64,000 nucleotides of DNA from an uncultured Pseudomonadota bacterium (GCA_903848935.1 CAINHO010000015.1:4426-68425), one strand, 5' to 3'; numbered from the stretch's first letter, positions 15,817-42,866 are shown. The notes: generated by a model not told the origin, from the letters alone. Numbers and translations are program-made.

Positions 15817-15852
15817 GAAGTGATTATGAATTTTGAGGTGATTATGAATTTT
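15817..15852 (+). repeat. imperfect 18-bp tandem duplication spanning the SD/ATG of the XRE paralogue B gene
   Basis: GAAGTGATTATGAATTTT followed by GAGGTGATTATGAATTTT (1 mismatch). Confidence 0.9.
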
Positions 15853-16221
15853 ATCAATGAAAAAATACGTTCAATACGCAAATCAAGGGATTGGTCACAA
15901 GAAGAAATGGCAGAAAAGTTAAGTATGTCTGTTCATGGCTATGGAAAAATTGAACGCGGAGAAACAAAACCTAATATTCTAAAATTGAGAAAAATAGCAG
16001 AAGTGTTAAATGTAGATTTACTGAAATTACTACTGTCTAACGGAAATAATAACAGTTACAACGATGCGAATAGTGGTTCATCGCGGGAAGTCACCTTTGA
16101 AATGGAAATACTCAAAATGGAAATTTCACACAAAGATGAAGTTATTTTCCTTCAAAAACGAGAAATAGCACATTTAGAACATATAGTTGAAGTGATAGAA
16201 TCCCGACGAAGCCAACGCTAA
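15820..16221 (+). CDS. XRE-family HTH regulator with coiled-coil-like C-terminus (paralogue B); probable start ATG 15844 (or 15826)
   Basis: MNFINEKIRSIRKSRDWSQEEMAEKLSMSVHGYGKIERGE is an HTH. An N/S-rich linker follows, then EMEILKMEISHKDEVIFLQKREIAHLEHIVEVIE. Confidence 0.8.
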   Translation: MIMNFEVIMNFINEKIRSIRKSRDWSQEEMAEKLSMSVHGYGKIERGETKPNILKLRKIAEVLNVDLLKLLLSNGNNNSYNDANSGSSREVTFEMEILKMEISHKDEVIFLQKREIAHLEHIVEVIESRRSQR

Positions 16222-16259
16222 TTGGGCAACACTGAATCTTCTCGTTTTACGTTTTCACC

Positions 16260-16739
16260 TTGCAACTCCGCGTTAGAATCAACAAAATGGTATTTAGGGT
16301 TATTTATGAAAATCGACGAAAATCGACGAAAATCGACGAAAAAATACGAACAATGCGAAAAGCAAGGAATTGGTCACAAGAAGAAATGGCAGAAAAGCTA
16401 AATATGTCTGTTAATGGCTATGCAAAAATTGAACGCGGGGAAACAAAACCTCATATTCCCAAATTGAAAGAAATCGCAGATGTATTAGACGTGGATTTAT
16501 CGGTGTTGTTAATCAATGATAAAAACGTGTATTTAATTAGCGGTGATAACAATAGTAATAATTCAAATAGTAATAACTCAGCGGGCAACCGTAACATTAT
16601 TGGCACACCGCCAGATGTTGCTTTTGAAATTCAAAAACTTCAAATGACGGTGAGCCATAAAGATGAGGTGATTGATTTTCAAAAACGAGAAATTGAGCGT
16701 TTGGAAGAAATTATTGTGTTGATGAAATCTGTGAATTAG
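16260..16739 (+). CDS. XRE-family HTH regulator with coiled-coil-like C-terminus (paralogue C); start uncertain (TTG 16260, ATG 16287 or ATG 16352 in frame; SD-linked ATG 16306 out of frame)
   Basis: IRTMRKARNWSQEEMAEKLNMSVNGYAKIERGE is an HTH. The linker is NNSNNSNSNNS. The tail FEIQKLQMTVSHKDEVIDFQKREIERLEEIIVLMK is very similar by eye to paralogue B. Confidence 0.8.
   Translation: MQLRVRINKMVFRVIYENRRKSTKIDEKIRTMRKARNWSQEEMAEKLNMSVNGYAKIERGETKPHIPKLKEIADVLDVDLSVLLINDKNVYLISGDNNSNNSNSNNSAGNRNIIGTPPDVAFEIQKLQMTVSHKDEVIDFQKREIERLEEIIVLMKSVN
16309..16338 (+). repeat. perfect 10-bp tandem repeat AAAATCGACG x3 (plus degenerate 4th unit to 16348) inside the 5' end of the XRE paralogue C gene
   Basis: Read directly: ATG AAAATCGACG AAAATCGACG AAAATCGACG AAAAAATACG. 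Confidence 0.95.
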
Positions 16740-16747
16740 GAGCAATT

Positions 16748-17137
16748 ATGAAATCAAAATTAGTTGTTGCGGTATTGATGTTGGCATTGCCTTTGTTGGC
16801 GAATGCTGACCGATATGGACATCGCGGTGGAAATCGTGGACACGGTAATGGTTGGATTGCGCCTGCAATTATCGGCGGTGCAATTGTGGGTTCGGCAATA
16901 TATGGGGCAACTCGAAATGATGAGCGTCAGTATGATGATGACAGAAATTATCGTCGTCAATTAACGCAACAAGAAATGCGAGAAGAGCAATTAAGATTGC
17001 GTGAAATGGAACTTGAACGCCGTGAACATGAGTATTACGAACGGCAAAATCGCGCTCGTGGCTATAATCGTGAAAACTGCAAAGAGTATTATCGTGATGA
17101 CGGCAATTCAAATTATTATTCGAAAAATTGTTGGTAG
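16748..17137 (+). CDS. small secreted protein with glycine-zipper segment and R/E/Y-rich charged tail (hypothetical)
   Basis: 129 aa. Signal peptide MKSKLVVAVLMLALPLLANA, IIGGAIVGSAIYG, then QQEMREEQLRLREMELERREHEYYERQNR, with two C-terminal Cys. AGGAG sits 6 nt upstream, and the start is 8 nt after the XRE-C stop. Confidence 0.6.
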   Translation: MKSKLVVAVLMLALPLLANADRYGHRGGNRGHGNGWIAPAIIGGAIVGSAIYGATRNDERQYDDDRNYRRQLTQQEMREEQLRLREMELERREHEYYERQNRARGYNRENCKEYYRDDGNSNYYSKNCW

Positions 17138-17275
17138 CGTTCACGGCGTGGCAATCTTGAATAATATCATTCGTGCATGAGCTGATTTTGCTAGAATAGC
17201 GCAAACAAACCGCACGGATTAGCTGCATCGTTGGCTAGTCCGATTTTTTTACCTTCAAATTGCAAAAAGTAGCCC

Positions 17276-19075
17276 GTGGATTTAAAACATATTAGAAATT
17301 TCTCCATCATTGCCCATATCGATCATGGCAAATCAACGCTCGCCGACCGTTTCATTCAACTGTGTGGTGGCTTATCTGACCGCGAAATGTCCGCGCAAGT
17401 GCTAGATTCAATGGACATTGAACGCGAACGCGGCATCACGATTAAAGCGCAAAGTGTCACGCTTGATTTCAAAGCGGCTGACGGCGAAACGTATCAATTA
17501 AACTTTATCGACACACCAGGACACGTTGATTTTTCGTATGAAGTTTCGCGTTCCTTAGCGGCGTGTGAAGGTGCATTATTGGTGGTCGATGCGGCGCAAG
17601 GCGTGGAAGCACAAAGCGTCGCGAATTGTTACACCGCCATCGAACAAGGGCTAGAAGTCGTTCCTGTTTTAAACAAAATCGATTTGCCGTCGGCTGAACC
17701 CGAACAAGTCAAAAACGAAATTGAAGAAGTTATCGGCATTCCGGCTGACGAAGCGTTGATGATTAGCGCGAAAACGGGCTTGGGTGTGAAAGACGTTTTA
17801 GAACAACTCGTGTTGAAAATCCCACCGCCTCAAGGCGATGCGGATGCACCGTTGCAAGCGTTGATTATTGATTCGTGGTTTGACAGTTATTTGGGCGTAG
17901 TTTCATTAGTTCGCATCATGAATGGCAGTATTAAGCGCAAACAAAAAATCACGATTATGTCCACGGGCAAATCATTTTTAGCGGAAAAAATCGGCGTATT
18001 TACACCGAAACGTGTCGAAAAAGAAATTTTAAATACGGGCGAAGTGGGCTTTTTAGTCGCAGGTATTAAAGATATTTTTGGTGCGCCTGTCGGTGATACC
18101 GTCACATGGGCGGACAACCCAGCAACGGAACAATTAACGGGTTTTCAACGGGTTCAACCGCGTGTTTTTGCGGGTTTATATCCCGTTAGTTCGGATGATT
18201 ATGAAGACTTGCGCGATGCCTTAAACAAATTGAATTTGAACGATGCTTCGTTGCAATTTGAACCCGAAACGTCGCAAGCGTTGGGTTTTGGATTTCGTTG
18301 TGGATTTTTGGGTATGTTGCACATGGAAATTGTGCAAGAACGCCTCGAACGTGAATATGACGTTGATTTAATTACGACAGCACCAACGGTAATTTACGAA
18401 GTCATTACGCAAACGGGTCAAACCATCATGGTGGATAATCCTGCAAAATTGCCTGAAAACGGCACAGTGGCTGAAATTCGTGAACCGATTATTCGTGCCA
18501 ACATTTTGGTACCAGAGGCTTATGTCGGTGCGGTGATTACGTTATGTATTGAAAAACGGGGCGTGCAAAAAGATATGCTCTACGTCGGTCGGCAAGTTTC
18601 ATTGCATTACGAAATGCCTTTGAATGAAGTGGTTTTAGATTTTTTTGACCGATTGAAATCAGTCAGTCGGGGTTTTGCATCGTTCGATTATGAATTTTTG
18701 CGTTTCCAAGTCGCGTCGTTAGTGAAATTGGACGTGTTGATTAACGCTGAAAAAGTCGATGCGTTGTCGAGCATTGTGCATCAGGATTTGAGCGTGAAAC
18801 GGGGTCGCGATTTAGTCGAAAAAATGAAAGAGTTAATCCCGCGCCAAATGTTCGAGATTGCGATTCAGGCGGCAATTGGCTCGAAAATTATTGCTCGTTC
18901 GACCGTGAAAGCGATGAGCAAAAACGTGTTGGCAAAATGTTATGGCGGTGATATTTCACGCAAGAAAAAACTGCTCGAAAAACAAAAAGCGGGTAAAAAA
19001 CGCATGAAACAAGTGGGAAATGTTGAAATTCCACAAGAAGCGTTTTTAGCCGTTTTGAAATTGAACAAAGACTAA
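17276..19075 (+). CDS. lepA: translation elongation factor 4 (LepA)
   Basis: 599 aa, GTG start. [33 protein letters not shown], and C-terminal LepA-specific domain ending ...[15 protein letters not shown]. Confidence 0.97.
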
Positions 19076-19085
19076 GGCGGCGACG

Positions 19086-19862
19086 ATGGATTTTGATTTT
19101 TCGTTTTTTTTATTTGTAGCAACAGCCGTTACTGGCGTGATTTGGGGCGGTTATGCGTGGTATTTGAAACACCAAAATGTGCCTTATGATATTGAAAAAG
19201 AGCCGCTTTTAGTCGAATACGCGCATTCATTTTTCCCCGTCGTGTTAATTGTTTTTTTACTACGTTCTTTTATTGCTGAACCGTTTCGGATTCCTTCTGC
19301 GTCAATGATGCCGACATTGTTAGTCGGTGATTTTATTTTGGTGAATAAATTTACTTACGGCATTCGTATTCCGGTGATTAACAAAAAAGTCATTGAATTA
19401 ACCCAGCCCAGACGCGGTGATATTGTGGTGTTTCGCTATCCGAAAAATCCCGAAGTTGATTACATCAAACGTTTGATTGGTTTGCCGCATGACAAAATTT
19501 CGTATGCGAATAAACGTTTAACCGTGAATGGTCAGGCGATTCCAGAAACCGCGTTAGGCGAATTTCAAGGCGTTGGACAAGGCGAAGATATGACGGGAGC
19601 GGCGAACTTTTTGGAAAATTTGACCGGTGTAGAGCATCAGATTTTGAATCGTGACGGCGTGCAGTCGGTGGAATTTACTTACACCGTTCCAGAAGGTCAG
19701 TATTTTATGATGGGCGACAACCGTGACAACAGTAACGACAGCCGTTATTGGGGAACGGTTCCCGAAGAGAATTTAGTCGGCAAAGCATTTTTCATTTGGA
19801 TGAGTTGGGATTGGCAACATAAAGGCGTGGATTTTTCACGCATCGGAACGATTTTGAAATAA
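19086..19862 (+). CDS. lepB: signal peptidase I
   Basis: 258 aa. SASMMPTL (catalytic Ser), KRLIGLPHD (Lys box), GDNRDNSNDSRYWG. Confidence 0.95.
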   Translation: MDFDFSFFLFVATAVTGVIWGGYAWYLKHQNVPYDIEKEPLLVEYAHSFFPVVLIVFLLRSFIAEPFRIPSASMMPTLLVGDFILVNKFTYGIRIPVINKKVIELTQPRRGDIVVFRYPKNPEVDYIKRLIGLPHDKISYANKRLTVNGQAIPETALGEFQGVGQGEDMTGAANFLENLTGVEHQILNRDGVQSVEFTYTVPEGQYFMMGDNRDNSNDSRYWGTVPEENLVGKAFFIWMSWDWQHKGVDFSRIGTILK

Positions 19863-34648: not shown

Positions 34649-37042
34649 ATGACAGATTCTCTAAAACTCCCCCTTGAAACCTTAAAAGCCACCATCGATT
34701 TAAGTGCTATCGATTTCACCCCTCCCCTAAATTCAGAAATTGGAATTTTGGGGCAAGAACGCGCTCAAGCTGCACTCGAGTTCGGTATTGCCATGCCAAA
34801 TTCTGGCTATAACATTTTTGTGATGGGCGAGACTGGCTCAGGACGCTTGTCGATGATTATGCAGTATTTAAATGCCCTCGCACCTAATCACCCTGCACCA
34901 TCAGCGTATGCGTATGTTGATAATTTCGACAATGCTCGTGAACCAATTGCAGTTCAATTACCAGCGGAACACGGACAAGAGTTTTGTAAAGCGATTGAAA
35001 ATTTAATCACCAACGTGCTTGCGACCTTTCCAGCGGCATTTGAAAATCCCAGTTATCAACAGAAAAAAACCGTGGTGGAACGCCAATTTGTTCACACTTA
35101 TCGCGATGCGACCGAGCGCGTCGATGAGCAAGCGCGAGAATTGGGAATTGGTTTATTTTCAGAAAACGACACGTTTAATTTTTTACCACTTATTGAAAGT
35201 CGTCCGATGCGCGAGGAAGAATTGTCCGCGTTATCCACGGAAGATCGCGACACATTTAAACAGTGTGTTGAAGAATTGGAAGATTGTTTAAGCGGCGCAT
35301 TATTGGAATTACCGCAATGGCGCAGAGAACTGGCTGCTTCGATGACGCAGCTCAATAACGATACGATTGACGCGGCGATTGAACCGTTATTTGAGGAATT
35401 AAATGCGCGTTATGAAGGCATTGAAGACGTGGTAACGTATTTATCGGAAGTGAAAAAAAATCTGCGCCTCACGATTAACGATTTTTTAATGCCGGTTTCG
35501 ACCAGCGAACCGATTGAACGTGATTACACGCTTAAGCGGCTAATTATGGAACAATACGCGCCGAACATTTTGATCGATTACAAGCAAGATAACGGTGCGC
35601 CAGTCATTTATGAAACGCATCCGACATATCAAAATTTGTTTGGGCGTGTCGAATATGCGAATGATCAAGGTACGCTCGTGCCGCATTATCGCCGCATTTG
35701 TGCCGGTGCTTTGCATAAAGCAAATGGTGGTTATTTGATTTTAGATGCCGAAAAAGTGCTGCATTATCCGTTTGTGTGGGAAGGATTGAAACGGGCATTG
35801 AAATCGGGGTGTATTGAAATTGAATCGCCATATACCGAACAAAGTGCCAACACGATCACGCTCAAACCCGAAGTAATTCCGTTGAACGTGAAAATTATTT
35901 TGGTAGGTAATTGCGATATTTATTATTTGCTGGAATCAATGGACGACGAGTTTAACGAATCGTTCCGCGTATTAGCGGATTTTAATTATCGGATTCTCCG
36001 CACGCCCGACACGATGCGCCATTTCGCGCAACTGATGCAAAAACAAGCCACTGATGCGAAAACTTGTCCGCTCACGCAAGCGGCGATTGAAAGTTTAATC
36101 GAACACAGTTGTCGCTTGGCGGAAAGTCAGCAGTATTTTTCAGCGTGCATTAACGACGCGCTCGAAATCATTGGTGAAGCACAATTATTTGCGACCAAAA
36201 CGAAAAGCGAACACATTGATCGGCTTCAAATTGAACAGGCATTAACGGCACGGGAATATCGCAACGGGCGTGTGTCGCAAACGATTTTAGAAGAAATGCT
36301 CGATGGCACGATTTTGATTGATACCGATGGTGCGGCAGTGGGCAAAATCAATGGCTTGACGGTATTAGATATGGGAGGAAGTAGTTTTGGCACGCCAGCT
36401 CGAATTAGCACCACGGTTTATCCAGGTTCACGCGGCATTATCGACATTGAACGCGAAGCCGAATTGGGTCAATCGTTGCACACCAAAGGCGTGATGATTT
36501 TGACAGGTTATTTGGGGCATCGTTACGCACAACAATTTCCCTTGGCGATTTCTGCCAGCATTGCGATTGAACAATCTTACGGGCATATCGACGGCGATAG
36601 TGCAGCGTTAGCGGAATTGTGTAGTTTGATTTCGGCGTTGACGCGCGTGCCGATTAAACAAAATTTTGCAGTCACGGGATCGATTAACCAATACGGCGAA
36701 GTGCAAGCCATCGGTGGCGCGAATGAAAAAATTGAAGGCTTTTTTAGACTTTGCCAAGCGCGTGGTTTAAATGGTTCGCACGCGGTCATTATTCCAGCGG
36801 CAAATAAACGTAATTTGATGTTAAAACAAAACGTTTTAGACGCGGTTGAAGCAGGATTGTTCTCGATTTACGCGGTAAGTACGGTGGATGAAGCGTTGGA
36901 ATTATTGACGGGTGAAATTGTGGGGATGTTGGATGCTGATGGCAATATACTTGAAAATAGTTTGAACTTTAGAGCGATTGCACGTTTGAAAGAAATTTCT
37001 GAATTGAGTGACGACGATGACGACAAAGAAAATGAACACTAA
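34649..37042 (+). CDS. Lon-like protease (AAA-like domain + C-terminal Lon Ser-Lys protease domain)
   Basis: 797 aa. The P-loop-like GETGSGRLS has Arg where Walker A Lys is expected. The Lon_C region has IDGDSAALAELCSLISAL (catalytic Ser context) and GGANEKIEGFF (Lys). Acidic C-terminus. Confidence 0.8.
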   Translation: MTDSLKLPLETLKATIDLSAIDFTPPLNSEIGILGQERAQAALEFGIAMPNSGYNIFVMGETGSGRLSMIMQYLNALAPNHPAPSAYAYVDNFDNAREPIAVQLPAEHGQEFCKAIENLITNVLATFPAAFENPSYQQKKTVVERQFVHTYRDATERVDEQARELGIGLFSENDTFNFLPLIESRPMREEELSALSTEDRDTFKQCVEELEDCLSGALLELPQWRRELAASMTQLNNDTIDAAIEPLFEELNARYEGIEDVVTYLSEVKKNLRLTINDFLMPVSTSEPIERDYTLKRLIMEQYAPNILIDYKQDNGAPVIYETHPTYQNLFGRVEYANDQGTLVPHYRRICAGALHKANGGYLILDAEKVLHYPFVWEGLKRALKSGCIEIESPYTEQSANTITLKPEVIPLNVKIILVGNCDIYYLLESMDDEFNESFRVLADFNYRILRTPDTMRHFAQLMQKQATDAKTCPLTQAAIESLIEHSCRLAESQQYFSACINDALEIIGEAQLFATKTKSEHIDRLQIEQALTAREYRNGRVSQTILEEMLDGTILIDTDGAAVGKINGLTVLDMGGSSFGTPARISTTVYPGSRGIIDIEREAELGQSLHTKGVMILTGYLGHRYAQQFPLAISASIAIEQSYGHIDGDSAALAELCSLISALTRVPIKQNFAVTGSINQYGEVQAIGGANEKIEGFFRLCQARGLNGSHAVIIPAANKRNLMLKQNVLDAVEAGLFSIYAVSTVDEALELLTGEIVGMLDADGNILENSLNFRAIARLKEISELSDDDDDKENEH

Positions 37043-37392
37043 AGCTGCACGTCAAACCATTCCAAACATTTGACCATGCCAAAATAAGCGAGGGCGGTGA
37101 CAATACAAGCCGCCGTCAAACTTAACCAAAAGTTCACGCCGACGCGAAGTAAAAGTGGCAGCACAATAAACAACGCGAGCGATGGTAAAACTAACCAGAA
37201 AATTCCTTGCGAAAGGGCGGCAACTTTTTCAACGTCGCCCGAATCCAGATAAAGCCAAACGAAAGCCAGTAAAGACGTAAGCGGGATGGATGCTAATGCC
37301 GCGCCTAAAAACGAACTGCGTTTCGCCAATTCGGAAATAGCGACTAAAAGCGTTGCTGAAAGGATGATTTTTAAAGCGTATTGCCACATCAA
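37039..37392 (-). CDS. small 4-TM membrane protein (DUF3147-like)
   Basis: 117 aa. KIILSATLLVAISELAKRSSFLGAALASIPLTSLLAFVWLY. Overlaps the upstream GGDEF gene by 4 nt. Confidence 0.55.
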   Translation of the reverse strand: MMWQYALKIILSATLLVAISELAKRSSFLGAALASIPLTSLLAFVWLYLDSGDVEKVAALSQGIFWLVLPSLALFIVLPLLLRVGVNFWLSLTAACIVTALAYFGMVKCLEWFDVQL

Positions 37393-38876
37393 GACATCGT
37401 GTTTGAATCGTAACGAACGTATTTAGACTTTCCAGTTTCTTTCGCGTGATACATTGCTAAATCGGCGTGTTCGAGCAAAACTTCTGGTACATTTTTATCT
37501 AGTGGATAAAGCGTTACGCCAATACTCGCGCTGACGTGTGCCACGTCATCACCAATCTGAACAGGTTCTTTAATGTGAACCAATAGTCTATCGAGCAACA
37601 TCTGATAATCGTTGGGCTTCGTTAAATCACCAAACAAAATCACAAATTCGTCACCGCCAAACCGCGCAACCGTATCATTGGCGCGTAATAATTTAGAAAA
37701 ACGTCGCGCCACTTCTTTGAGTAATTCGTCGCCCGCCGCGTGTCCCTGTGTATCGTTCACCGCTTTAAAACCGTCCAAATCTAAATAACAAACCGCAAGA
37801 TATGTTTTACTTCGTTCTGCCCGAGCCAACGCCTGTTTTAATCGATCCGCCAGCAAAATCCGATTTGGCAAGCCCGTTAACGCATCGTGATAAGCATGAT
37901 GTTCTAATTCATTTTTTAGTTCTAATAAATTCGCGACATTTGAAAAAACTGCCACATAATTTGTAACTGCACCAAGTTCGTTTTTTACCGACGACAAGGT
38001 AAGCCATTCTTCATTACGTTCATCAGCTACAATTTGATCATGAATTTCACCGCTCCAATAACCACATTGTTCAAGCTCGCGTTGAATGATTTCAAGTAGT
38101 GACTCATTTTTAAAAGCAGTTTTTACATCAGCTAAATTCAGACCAATTAACTCATCAAGCGATAATTGTTTAGCACGACAAAATGACGGATTGGCTTCGA
38201 TAATATTCAAGTTTTTATCGGTAATACAAATCGCATCTAAGGTATTTTCAAACACGCTGGACGATAAACGTTGTTTGGCTTCGTGTTTTTGTCGTTCCAA
38301 AATTTCTTTCATGAGTTGAACCGTGCGACTGCAAATACTGTCGTACATCGACAAAACCGTTTCGATTAAAACTTTCATCGCGCCAGACATTTCGTGTTCT
38401 GACAGATGTTTAGCCTCGTCTAACGTCGCACCACTTTGTATTGCCAAAATTGCTTTCGCCATCCGTTTATCTGTTTCCAAAATATGGAAAGCGAGCCACT
38501 GCGTTAAAAACGACAAAACCTCTTCGATGACTTGCTCGGTACTTACGTCTCCTTCTTCATTTTTGAGTCGAATAATTTCGGCAATAAAATTTTTGTGTGT
38601 CGCTTTATGTGTGATTTCTAATTCATCATCTGGAAAATACTTGTGCCAAATCGCTTCTTCCGTTTGAAAGTGATAAATCGTGTAGTCAGTTAGCTGCTTG
38701 AAAATAGCGTTAAGCGTTAGCGTGTCAGATTGATGCACAAAATGTTTCGCCAGCAAATTTACCAGTTCTAAAAGTTTTTTGTGTTGTTCGTCGATGATTT
38801 CAATGCCCGTATCAAAATTCTTATTCCAGGGAAAAATATCAATGTCATTTGCGATTTGAAGATCTGTTTCAGTCAT
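37389..38876 (-). CDS. bacteriohemerythrin-PAS-GGDEF diguanylate cyclase
   Basis: 495 aa. Hemerythrin motifs (WNKNFDTGIEIIDEQHKKL, HFQTEE, HKATHKNF, FHILETD), a PAS region, and a GGDEF domain with intact RFGGDEF and RxxD (RAND). Confidence 0.85.
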   Translation of the reverse strand: MTETDLQIANDIDIFPWNKNFDTGIEIIDEQHKKLLELVNLLAKHFVHQSDTLTLNAIFKQLTDYTIYHFQTEEAIWHKYFPDDELEITHKATHKNFIAEIIRLKNEEGDVSTEQVIEEVLSFLTQWLAFHILETDKRMAKAILAIQSGATLDEAKHLSEHEMSGAMKVLIETVLSMYDSICSRTVQLMKEILERQKHEAKQRLSSSVFENTLDAICITDKNLNIIEANPSFCRAKQLSLDELIGLNLADVKTAFKNESLLEIIQRELEQCGYWSGEIHDQIVADERNEEWLTLSSVKNELGAVTNYVAVFSNVANLLELKNELEHHAYHDALTGLPNRILLADRLKQALARAERSKTYLAVCYLDLDGFKAVNDTQGHAAGDELLKEVARRFSKLLRANDTVARFGGDEFVILFGDLTKPNDYQMLLDRLLVHIKEPVQIGDDVAHVSASIGVTLYPLDKNVPEVLLEHADLAMYHAKETGKSKYVRYDSNTMS

Positions 38877-38897: not shown

Positions 38898-40664
38898 TTA
38901 ATATACGCGAGCTTTAGGCGCAATCATTTCAACTGCGTTTGTGAGAGTGTACAAATGCACTGGACGATAATCAATTTTTACTTTGTCATCACACAACCAA
39001 GTCAGGGTATGTTTCAACCAATTTTTATCGTCACGGTTAGGATAATCTTCACGCGCATGACCCCCCCGACTTTCATGACGATTTGCCGCCGCGTGAATGG
39101 CAACGGTGGCTTGCGCCAATAAATTATCAAGTTCCAACGCTTCGACTAAATCGGTATTCCAAATCAGCGAACGGTCGGTTAAGCCTAAATTCACAAAGGA
39201 TTCACGCACGATTTTCATTTCGGAAATACCTTCGTCTAATGTGGTTTGTGTTCTAAAAACGGCGGCTTTACTTTGCATCGTTTTCTGCATGGCTGAACGA
39301 ATTTCAGCGGTGCTTGATTCTCCTTTTGCGTGACGAATTCGTGCAAATCTCGCTAACGCTTCGGCGTAACATTCAGGTTCTAGTTCTGAATGCGGTTGAT
39401 TTGGCGTAATCAATTCAGCACAACGTAACGCGGCGGCACGTCCAAAAACGACCAAATCCAACAACGAATTTGAACCTAAACGGTTTGCGCCATGAACTGA
39501 AACACAAGCCGCTTCGCCAATTGCCATCAAGCCTTTGACGATAGAATTCGGATTGTTATCGCTTAACGTCACGACTTCAGCGTGATAATTCGTTGGAATC
39601 CCGCCCATGTTGTAATGAACCGTCGGAAGCACAGGAATCGGTTGTTTGGTGACATCGATGCCAGCGAAAATTCGTGACGTTTCAGAAATTCCAGGCAAGC
39701 GTTCATGAAGTAGGGCAGGGGGCAAATGTTCGAGGTGCAAATGAAGGTGGTCTTTCAATTCGCCTACACCGCGACCAGCATGAATTTCCATCGTCATGGC
39801 ACGACTCACTACGTCGCGCGAGGCTAAATCTTTGGCGTTTGGTGCGTAACGTTCCATGAAACGTTCGCCTTCGGAATTGGTGAGATAACCGCCTTCGCCG
39901 CGTGCGCCTTCGGTAATTAAACAACCTGCGCCGTAAATACCCGTCGGGTGAAATTGAATAAACTCCATGTCTTGCAACGGTAAACCTGCGCGTAAAACCA
40001 TTGCATTGCCGTCGCCGGTAACAGTGTGTGCCGACGTACAAGAAAAATAGGTTCGTCCATAACCACCCGTTGCTAAAATCGTGGCGTGCGCTTTGAAAAG
40101 ATGCAATGAACCATCGTCTAAACACCAAGCAATTACGCCACGGCATTCGCCATTGTCCATGATTAAATCGAGAACGATATATTCCACGAAAAATTCAGCT
40201 TTATGTTTTAAGGCTTGTTGATAGAGCGTGTGCAGAATTGCGTGACCGGTTTTATCGGCAGCGGCACAAGTGCGTTGTGCTTGACCTTCGCCGTAATGCG
40301 TTGTCATGCCGCCAAACGCACGTTGATAAATTTTACCGTCGGCGGTGCGTGAAAATGGTACGCCATAATGCTCCAATTCAACCACGGCAGGAATCGCTTC
40401 GCGACACATATATTCAATCGCGTCTTGATCGCCGAGCCAATCAGAACCTTTCACTGTATCGTAAAAATGGTAACGCCAATCGTCTTCGCCCATGTTACCT
40501 AACGCGGCACTAATGCCACCTTGGGCAGCAACCGTGTGACTTCGGGTTGGAAAAACTTTGGTTAAACAAGCAGTTTTTAGCCCTTTTTCAACCGTACCAA
40601 GCGTGGCGCGTAAGCCCGCACCACCGGCACCAATAACAATCACATCGAATTCGTGGACAATCAT
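38898..40664 (-). CDS. sdhA: succinate dehydrogenase/fumarate reductase flavoprotein subunit
   Basis: 588 aa. [24 protein letters not shown] (covalent-FAD His), [28 protein letters not shown]. Colinear end-to-end with E. coli SdhA from memory. Confidence 0.93.
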
Positions 40665-41588
40665 TTATTCTGGATGGCGAGGAGTTTCAGCGGAACGCAT
40701 AAACGAAATGGGGGCATTATCTTCGTTGTCAAAGCTGACCATTTCCCAAGCGTCTTTGTCTTCAAGTAACGCGCGTAATAACAAATTATTTAAGCCGTGA
40801 CCGGATTTATGACCGGTAAATTCACCGATTAAACTGTGACCGAGCAAATATAAATCGCCAATCGCATCGAGGATTTTGTGTTTTACAAATTCGTCAGCGT
40901 AGCGCAGCCCGTCTTCGTTAATTACTTTGTCGTCATCGACCACAATCGCATTGTCTAAACTGCCACCTAATGCGAGATTGTTTTTTTGCAGCGTTTCAAT
41001 ATCTTTCATAAAACCAAAAGTTCGCGCTCGACTGACTTCGCGCACAAAAGTTGTCGATGAAAAATCCATCGTGGCGGTTTTGACGTGATTTTCAAATGCA
41101 GGATGTTCAAAATCAATTGTGAATGTCACTTTGAAACCATTGAATGGTTCAAATGCCGCCCATTTATCGCCGTCTTCTACTCGCACAGCACGTTTAATTC
41201 GTAGATATTGTTTGGGGCAATCTTGTTCTTGCACGCCGGCAGATTGTAGCAAAAACACAAACGGACCTGCACTACCATCCATAATCGGCACTTCGGGTGC
41301 GGTCACGTCGATAATTGCGTTATCAATTCCTAAACCCGCAAAAGCAGACAACAAATGCTCAACGGTAGAAATTTTAACATCCCCCAAAACCAACGTCGTT
41401 GAAAGCGTAGTTTCGCCGACATTTTCCGGCGTGGCTTGAATCGTGACGGGCGTTTCTAAATCGACACGGCGAAAACAAATTCCTGTATTCGGCTCGGCAG
41501 GATGCAACGTTAAATAAACTTGCTCGCCGGTGTGTAAGCCTACGCCTGTGGCGCGAATGGTATTTTTTAAAGTGCGCTGTTTAATCAT
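40665..41588 (-). CDS. lpxC: UDP-3-O-acyl-N-acetylglucosamine deacetylase
   Basis: 307 aa. MIKQRTLKN...[21 protein letters not shown]. Downstream of ftsZ, as usual. Confidence 0.96.
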
Positions 41589-41678
41589 AACGTGAATTGC
41601 CCGTTAAAAATAACGCGCCCAATTGAGCGCGTTAGTTAGGGTTGCTTGCAGGTGAAAACCCTGCAACAGAAAAGAGTG

Positions 41679-42866
41679 TTAATCGGCTTGTCGTCTTAAA
41701 AAAGCGGGAATATCCAAGTATTCAATATCGCCACCTTGTTTCGGTTGTGCGCCAAAACGGGTTTCACGACCTTCGCCACGATTGGTTTGTGCTGAATGTT
41801 GACGCATGACCGTTGGTTTGTCCAAGCCATCATAATTCATTTGACCGCCAGCGATATGGCGCGAGGTATTTACATTTTTCTGTGGTGCTTTGACTTCAAC
41901 AGCCGGCATTCCCATGCCTGTTGCCACGACAGTAACTTTAATTTCGTCGTCTAAATCAGGGTTAATCGACATACCAATTTTGATGGTTGCATCTTCCGAG
42001 GCAAACGCTGACACAATATCGCCGACTTCACTAAATTCTGCCATGCCCATATCGGATGCAGAAATGTTCACCAAAATACCGCGTGCGCCTTTCAAGTTAA
42101 TATCTTCGAGCAATGGGCAAGCAATCGCTTTTTCAGCGGCTTCACGCGCACGGTGTTCGCCGGTCGCCGAACCTGTTCCCATAATTGCTGCGCCCATGCC
42201 AGACATGACGGTGCGAACGTCCGCGAAATCCACGTTAATCATGCCAGGGTGAACAATTAAATCGGTGATGCCTTGAACAGCATCTAACAATACGTCATTA
42301 GCGGCTTTAAACGCATCAATCAATGACACTTTGTTACCCAAAACAGGCAATAATTTTTGATTTGGAATCGTAATTAACGAATCTACGAAACGTTCTAATT
42401 CGATAATGCCCTTTTCAGCCGCATCTTGTTTTCTCTTGCCTTCAAACAAAAATGGTTTTGTGACGACGGCAACCGTTAAAATGCCCATGCTGCGGGCGAT
42501 TTCTGCGACAACCGGAATTGCGCCAGTTCCCGTACCACCACCCATGCCGGCGGTTAAAAATACCATGTCCGCGCCTTCCAAAACTTCACGGATACGGGCT
42601 TTATTTTCTTCTGCCGCTTGACGACCGACTTCCGGATTTGTGCCTGCGCCCAAACCTTTGGTTAATTCCACACCCAATTGAATAATTGTGCCGAAATTTA
42701 ATTTGCGTAACGCTTGAGCATCAGTGTTCGCACAAATGAATTCTACGCCTTCAATGTGGTTGCCCGCCATATGACTTACCGCGTTATTGCCCCCGCCACC
42801 AATGCCAATGACCTTAATTACTGCGCTCTCGCTGTAAGTATCAATCAATTCAAATGCGTCTTTCAT
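41679..42866 (-). CDS. ftsZ: cell division protein FtsZ
   Basis: 395 aa. Tubulin signature GGGTGTG, NTDAQAL, C-terminal DIPAFLRRQAD. Confidence 0.99.
   Translation of the reverse strand: MKDAFELIDTYSESAVIKVIGIGGGGNNAVSHMAGNHIEGVEFICANTDAQALRKLNFGTIIQLGVELTKGLGAGTNPEVGRQAAEENKARIREVLEGADMVFLTAGMGGGTGTGAIPVVAEIARSMGILTVAVVTKPFLFEGKRKQDAAEKGIIELERFVDSLITIPNQKLLPVLGNKVSLIDAFKAANDVLLDAVQGITDLIVHPGMINVDFADVRTVMSGMGAAIMGTGSATGEHRAREAAEKAIACPLLEDINLKGARGILVNISASDMGMAEFSEVGDIVSAFASEDATIKIGMSINPDLDDEIKVTVVATGMGMPAVEVKAPQKNVNTSRHIAGGQMNYDGLDKPTVMRQHSAQTNRGEGRETRFGAQPKQGGDIEYLDIPAFLRRQAD

Follow-up and report, generated by a model that had tools for sequence, protein, structure and literature searches.

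We describe here an sdhA gene that lies directly behind lpxC in a 64,000-nucleotide (nt) stretch of DNA, hereafter the window, from an uncultured Pseudomonadota bacterium (GCA_903848935.1 CAINHO010000015.1:4426-68425). Judging from its sequence, we consider sdhA to be an ordinary respiratory succinate dehydrogenase flavoprotein gene at an unusual address rather than a gene for a new enzyme. Its product is very probably the subunit that carries covalently bound flavin adenine dinucleotide (FAD) in a normal four-subunit membrane succinate:quinone oxidoreductase (SQR, complex II), the operon of which has been dispersed into three pieces. Dispersed sdh genes as such are already known; the present case is a lineage-specific fragmentation of the sdh operon, with sdhA captured behind lpxC.

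Results

The gene behind lpxC encodes a complete SdhA

An earlier note on this stretch, made from the sequence alone, had reported a full-length SdhA-type flavoprotein with the covalent-FAD histidine motif. Our analysis bears this out: the product matches the equivalog model TIGR01816 (sdhA_forward) with 964.5 bits against a cut-off of 727.35, residues 4-588 covering model positions 1-584, and the RSHT motif is present. The span proposed for the gene, 38898-40667, was right as to the open reading frame (ORF), which encodes 588 amino acids (aa) on the minus strand, but wrong at its upper end, since the gene extends to 40664 and the excess is the stop codon of lpxC.

Both expected domains, FAD_binding_2 (PF00890, 416 bits) and Succ_DH_flav_C (PF02910, 156 bits), were recovered, and the protein did not reach the cut-off of any model for FrdA, NadB (345 bits vs 453 for nadB) or flavocytochrome. 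End-to-end alignments were obtained with the mitochondrial SDHA of solved structure (884 bits) and with E. coli SdhA (1NEK_A, 655 bits). All the FAD-binding and catalytic motifs are kept, namely GAGGAG, RSHT (at 41), which holds the covalent-FAD histidine, FHPTG (238), TEGARGEGG (251), RDVVSR (283), HYNMGG (350) and HGANRLG (391). These motifs, including the RSHTxxAQGG-type histidine and the catalytic histidine, arginine and threonine-glutamate residues, align identically with those of the solved SDHA. The closest named relatives are the SdhA proteins of Methylobacter, Methylomonas and Methyloprofundus, with 78-82% identity.

The partner subunits are encoded at two other loci

The genome carrying the window is a 2.40 Mb draft in 51 contigs, 91% complete, in which the window lies on contig C15; it also carries pmoA, and we therefore take the organism to be a methanotroph. 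The earlier note had found no sdhB, sdhC or sdhD near sdhA and had offered two options, partner subunits encoded elsewhere or a soluble stand-alone flavoenzyme. In agreement with the former observation, tblastn searches of the 64-kb window with the SdhB, SdhC and SdhD proteins of the same genome returned no match. The first option is supported, as an intact sdhC-sdhD pair is found on contig C11 and an intact sdhB-sdhE pair on contig C20, all above curated cut-offs (Table 1).

Instead of a single sdhCDAB operon, the genome thus has three loci on three contigs, an arrangement kept across the genus. Both flanks are visible at the C11 and C20 loci, and each piece is tightly packed among unrelated genes. 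On C11, sdhC-sdhD is divergent from a Nudix hydrolase gene and is followed by a carboxynorspermidine-decarboxylase-like gene. On C20, a rhodanese-domain gene and the gene of the iron-sulfur (Fe-S) carrier apbC follow sdhB-sdhE on the same strand (G000:C20:11552-14208), an order kept in most congeners; this may represent a functional grouping around Fe-S protein maturation or a coincidence. In this strain only, a DNA cytosine-5 methyltransferase gene (dcm, TIGR00675; G000:C20:10541-11521) is located between bioF and sdhB.

The earlier note had also considered that a complete sdhCDAB operon might exist elsewhere, which would make the window copy an unexpressed paralogue. This is contradicted by the finding that sdhA is the sole SdhA/FrdA gene in the genome, the runner-up being the NadB gene on contig C30 (892 bits on the NadB model), its only paralogue. 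Two candidates for a second SdhA/FrdA were rejected: the C30 match, which is this NadB, and a match on C22, which consists of an N-terminal FAD motif only.

The presence of sucA, sucC and a class I fumarase gene means that the supply of succinate and the use of fumarate are both encoded. Two full-length succinyl-CoA synthetase beta-type genes (C26:129075-130229 and C19:15003-16154) score above the TIGR01016 cut-off, one of which may be a malate thiokinase-like paralogue.

The three-piece arrangement is conserved in the genus

Each of the 25 genomes of the genus has sdhA, sdhB and sdhC in one copy, and sdhD and sdhE lie beside them in nearly all the loci checked. Synteny in relatives, a check suggested in the earlier note, supports the arrangement seen here: the lpxC-sdhA, sdhB-sdhE and sdhCD loci are each syntenic across the species of the genus. 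The order ftsZ-lpxC-sdhA recurs in congeners, at 19 sdhA loci. The sdhB locus reads bioF-sdhB-sdhE-rhodanese-apbC in most congeners, where sdhB follows bioF by about 15 nt, and nearly all of them have sdhC-sdhD between a divergent nudix gene and the decarboxylase gene.

Adjacency of lpxC and sdhA might also result from mis-assembly or from a binning chimera, to which a 51-contig metagenome-assembled genome (MAG) of 91% completeness could be prone. However, the junction is the same at the 19 congener loci, and an identical SdhA with the neighbours ftsA-ftsZ-lpxC-sdhA-GGDEF was recovered from independent ENA and Logan metagenome assemblies of several stratified-lake samples (32 index blocks), so that the chance of such an artefact appears vanishingly small.

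One congener, G024, which has the largest genome, keeps sdhC-sdhD-sdhA together, with sdhB-sdhE elsewhere and lpxC away from ftsZ. In the region G024:C51:15129-19031 of this genome, lpxC stands between a divergent gene for an AFG1/ZapE-like ATPase and convergent esterase genes. Another congener (G009:C216) yielded a second sdhC-sdhD-sdhA fragment, which is more divergent (SdhA 77% identical). This MAG has 5% contamination, and a co-binned relative is the probable source of the fragment.

The operon is intact in most of the family

A lone sdhA in a cell-division operon had been called unexpected, and comparison with the family (121 genomes of 36 genera, 117 of them with SdhA) confirms this view: sdhB lies downstream of sdhA on the same contig in 100 of the 117. 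The gap between the two genes is at most 5 nt in 94 of these 100 genomes, while six have an insertion of 79-1553 nt. The genomes listed for an altered sdhA-sdhB junction are G059, G132, G149, G096, G068 and G154. The ancestral unit in Methylococcales is sdhC-sdhD-sdhA-sdhB-sdhE, with sdhE directly after sdhB, and most of the family keeps sdhCDAB-sdhE. In a collection of species representatives from which 80 loci were recovered, sdhC and/or sdhD stand directly 5' of sdhA in all, and sdhB stands 3' in most; none of these 80 loci has lpxC beside sdhA.

Fifteen cases of split sdhA and sdhB were found; they belong to the genus of the window, to g29, to g37 and, with a single genome, to g18. In those cases without lpxC linkage that were checked, sdhC, sdhD and sdhA have stayed together. 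Across the family, breaks seem to recur at the sdhA-sdhB junction. In another family of the order (G028, G036), there is no sdhB within 1.5 kb after sdhA.

A probable single relocation of sdhA, and purifying selection

In a maximum-likelihood tree, all lpxC-linked SdhA proteins group in a single clade (SH-aLRT 99) that lies inside the family, and we therefore favor a single relocation followed by vertical inheritance. The genes flanking the sdhCDA and sdhB loci of G024 have no counterparts beside the sdh loci of g29, g37, g18, Methylobacter or Methylomonas. A single shared split of sdhB can therefore not be shown; that sdhB split off first and sdhA moved later is no more than a parsimonious order of events.

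Pairwise dN/dS values (the ratio of nonsynonymous to synonymous rates, Nei-Gojobori method) were 0.058 for lpxC-linked sdhA and equally 0.058 for operon-borne sdhA, compared with 0.09 for sdhB, 0.19 for both sdhC and sdhD, 0.13 for sdhE and 0.04 for lpxC. The relocated sdhA is thus under purifying selection, with no sign of relaxed or redirected selection.

The same tree bears on the possibility that the lpxC-linked sdhA is a horizontal copy from a related methanotroph that replaced the operon copy, with no move within the genome. We consider this highly unlikely. Resolution around the clade is indeed poor in the tree, where G024 falls with g37 instead of with its own genus, yet the lpxC-linked proteins fall inside the SdhA radiation of the family, and the identities of SdhB and SdhC/D to family members follow the pattern seen for SdhA. 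The lpxC-linked clade, G024, g29 and g37 have no flanking genes of the sdhCDA and sdhB loci in common, which makes the history of rearrangement untraceable; on the other hand, the ORFs and domain matches of the window include no mobile-element genes flanking sdhA. Horizontal transfer argued from base composition was ruled out, as the GC content of sdhA (0.47 overall and 0.41 at third codon positions) matches that of lpxC and ftsZ.

The lpxC-sdhA junction and expression signals

The earlier note had placed the start of sdhA immediately after lpxC, without a recognizable Shine-Dalgarno (SD) sequence, and our data agree on both counts. On the minus strand the junction reads CCAGAATAAATGATTGTC, the ATG of sdhA beginning at the base next to the TAA of lpxC, and the 22 nt upstream show no anti-SD pairing (duplex free energy, dG, of +0.2 kcal/mol). 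Among 18 species loci, the lpxC-sdhA spacer measures 0 nt in eight, which have the identical junction, 3-9 nt in five and 25-38 nt in another five. None of the 18 lpxC-linked loci has SD-like pairing before sdhA (dG of 0 or more in all), in contrast to operon-borne sdhA, which is preceded by an SD-like AGGGT or AGGAT with a dG of -3.3 to -9.5 kcal/mol in 18 of 20 cases. The lpxC-linked proteins are also about 7 codons shorter at the N-terminus than the operon-borne members of the family and start with MI(V/T)HE, or with MANSI in one subclade. In a terminator scan, neither boundary of sdhA, with lpxC or with the GGDEF gene, showed a terminator-like hairpin. Fusion of LpxC to SdhA by stop read-through was rejected: the frames are in phase here, but in congeners the spacer length is not always divisible by three, and additional stop codons occur in some spacers.

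Upstream of lpxC, the ftsZ-lpxC spacer (41590-41678, minus strand) contains two hairpins, the second of which is formed by TAACGCGCTC, a loop and GGCGCGTTA, followed by TTTTT. In 11 species of the genus the stem of this hairpin is invariant and its loop variable. The spacer folds with -30.4 kcal/mol (z = -4.2), and the match of the Rfam small RNA family Xoo8 over 41516-41692 is sub-threshold (37.5 bits vs 90). From its sequence, the element looks like a terminator, an attenuator or a part of the 5' untranslated region of lpxC. Given this conserved hairpin and U-run, the transcription unit may be lpxC-sdhA with regulated read-through rather than a simple ftsZ-lpxC-sdhA message.

Other features of the window

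As the earlier note had reported, a diguanylate cyclase gene follows 21 nt past the sdhA stop codon; its product combines hemerythrin, PAS and GGDEF domains. This gene comes after sdhA in the genome of the window and in G001, G010, G004 and G021, and is absent in G005, G014 and G015, where orf117 stands directly after sdhA in copies of 87-90% identity. Since the GGDEF gene is present in some species only, the site downstream of sdhA is variable, through insertion or deletion. A candidate for a hidden sdhCDAB operon at 15820-19862, with ORFs of 133, 159, 129, 599 and 258 aa, was rejected, as these encode two XRE regulators, a DUF6732-like protein, LepA and LepB; the sdhAB-like pair of 599 and 258 aa (17276-19862) is lepA-lepB.

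Table 1. Coordinates of sdhA, its neighbors and the partner genes. Positions without a contig name are those of the window.
Feature	Position	Strand	Basis
sdhA, succinate:quinone oxidoreductase flavoprotein subunit, 588 aa	38898..40664 (stop codon 38898-38900)	minus	TIGR01816, PF00890 + PF02910
TAAATG, stop codon of lpxC joined to start codon of sdhA, no spacer, in frame	40662..40667	minus	sequence read
lpxC, UDP-3-O-acyl-GlcNAc deacetylase, 307 aa, last gene of the dcw cluster	40665..41588	minus	PF03331, 379 bits
Conserved GC-rich hairpin + U-run, 22 nt before the lpxC ATG	41611..41634	minus	terminator scan
ftsZ	41679..42866	minus	Tubulin + FtsZ_C Pfam matches on the identical gene at locus L189; synteny in relatives
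Hemerythrin-PAS-GGDEF diguanylate cyclase gene	37389..38876	minus	PF01814, PF13426, PF00990
orf117, conserved hypothetical (PRK09272 / PF28289 family), 4-nt overlap with the GGDEF gene	37039..37392	minus	NF006749, 142 bits vs cut-off 119; PF28289
sdhB	C20:11552-12322		NF004616, 368 bits vs 228; 2Fe-2S, 4Fe-4S and 3Fe-4S cysteine motifs all present
sdhE, short	C20, 9 nt after sdhB		PF03937, 55 bits vs 27; RGxxE motif present
sdhC (cytochrome b556)	C11		TIGR02970, 108 bits vs 52; heme-His and EDY motifs visible in the SdhC and SdhD pair
sdhD	C11		TIGR02968, 77 bits vs 42; motifs as given for sdhC

Discussion

We propose that in this genus the ancestral sdhC-sdhD-sdhA-sdhB-sdhE unit of Methylococcales broke into three pieces, each of which is now closely surrounded by unrelated genes of its own strand: sdhA 0-38 nt behind lpxC, sdhB-sdhE about 15 nt behind bioF or, in this strain, behind the inserted dcm, and sdhC-sdhD just ahead of the decarboxylase-like gene. 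During its move sdhA would have lost about 7 N-terminal codons together with its SD-like element. Most likely it shares its transcript with lpxC, started by whatever drives that gene. At spacers of 0-9 nt, translation of sdhA may proceed through coupling by termination-reinitiation, and at longer ones it may begin SD-independently on AU-rich leaders. SdhE would then help to flavinylate SdhA, which would assemble with SdhB and SdhCD supplied by the other two loci.

Several observations weigh against parts of this model. Starts without an SD are not rare in this genome, as about 9 of the 31 other genes in the window have a dG of 0 or more, although some of these start codons are possibly wrong; the argument for an obligatory coupling to lpxC is thereby weakened. 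Classical termination-reinitiation is less likely in the five of 18 species with spacers of 25-38 nt. Furthermore, the hairpin between ftsZ and lpxC could limit the transcription that enters lpxC-sdhA, and lpxC itself may contain an internal promoter. A scan for sigma-70-like sites on the minus strand in lpxC and in the ftsZ-lpxC spacer found none, but it was uninformative, the total number of hits being below the shuffled expectation.

One might instead suppose that the relocated SdhA is no longer bound to complex II and has its main role, or an added one, as a soluble flavoenzyme, such as an SdhA-SdhE fumarate reductase in hypoxic fermentation-like methanotrophy. Its expression would then be linked to lpxC and to the hemerythrin-GGDEF gene for O2 sensing. 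NadB and the soluble fumarate reductases share the FAD_binding_2 fold and can work without Fe-S and anchor subunits, and studies on lake methanotrophs take sdh as a marker of fermentative succinate (PMC7840105, PMC9723741). Unlike NadB, however, the window protein is an SdhA equivalog with every motif intact (964 bits on the SdhA model vs 345 on the nadB model, which is below the cut-off), and a separate, dedicated NadB already exists in the genome. Its gene is physically separated from sdhB and sdhCD and probably transcribed apart from them, yet these partners are conserved in the genus together with sdhE, and all four are under purifying selection. The lpxC-linked clade has a fairly long stem branch (0.12), whereas dN/dS equals that of the operon-borne copies; and while the hemerythrin-PAS-GGDEF gene comes next in several species, it is missing in several others. 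Considering all this, we regard the soluble enzyme, the second option of the earlier note, as very improbable.

A single sdhCDAB operon is typical of type C SQRs without strictly defining them. Like the flavoproteins of such enzymes, those of E. coli SdhCDAB (PDB 1NEK) and mitochondrial SDHA, the window protein has the two-domain architecture, the covalent-FAD histidine and the catalytic histidine, arginine and threonine-glutamate residues, and SdhB, SdhC, SdhD and the assembly factor SdhE are all encoded in the genome. It differs from them in the setting of its gene, outside an sdhCDAB operon and behind lpxC, and in the lack of an SD-like element; compared with operon-borne family members, its N-terminus is shorter by about 7 codons.

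Prior studies have described sdh genes split between loci in other bacteria. The sdh genes are split in the Anaplasmataceae Anaplasma phagocytophilum and Neorickettsia risticii, in which sdhCD comes directly after the gene for 16S rRNA (PMC2764437, citing Massung et al. 2008, Gene 414:41). As in our case, one piece lies there behind an unrelated housekeeping gene. Those, however, are reduced genomes of obligate intracellular bacteria with an rRNA gene as host, whereas the organism studied here is a free-living methanotroph with three pieces and a protein-coding gene, lpxC, as host. Similarly, in Synechocystis sp. PCC 6803 sdhA (slr1233) is unlinked from sdhB (sll1625, sll0823), with succinate dehydrogenase function demonstrated genetically (bioRxiv 10.1101/2021.09.27.461999, citing Cooley and Vermaas 2001). 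There too, the gene of the flavoprotein lies apart from those of the iron-sulfur subunit; the system differs from ours in being another type of succinate dehydrogenase, with a non-canonical anchor, two sdhB paralogues and no linkage to a cell-envelope gene. Literature searches turned up no earlier account of sdhA linked to lpxC, or of sdh operons split in methanotrophs; they yielded only tables of sdh presence and absence.

For MAGs of lake Methylococcales, published tables of this kind give sdhABC, sdhAB and the like (PMC7840105), and some of these patterns may be explained by the dispersal of the genes: with sdh at three loci, draft bins would often seem short of one or more subunits. This matters for MAG-based metabolic calls in lake methanotrophs. 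In the present organism a possible mis-annotation is removed, as it encodes a complete complex II rather than an orphan or soluble flavoenzyme.

That the break-up of sdh in this genus of lake methanotrophs was adaptive rather than neutral seems to us highly improbable. On this view, subunit-specific expression would be allowed by the position of sdhA behind lpxC, by that of sdhB-sdhE behind bioBF and next to the rhodanese gene and apbC, and by an sdhCD left on its own. If it were adaptive, a soluble pool of SdhA, or of SdhA with SdhE, could serve as a fumarate reductase or redox valve under hypoxia, and the capacity for respiration could be coupled to envelope growth. The genus offers a small natural experiment, in which a stoichiometric membrane complex of four subunits is still under strong purifying selection after its operon has dissolved.

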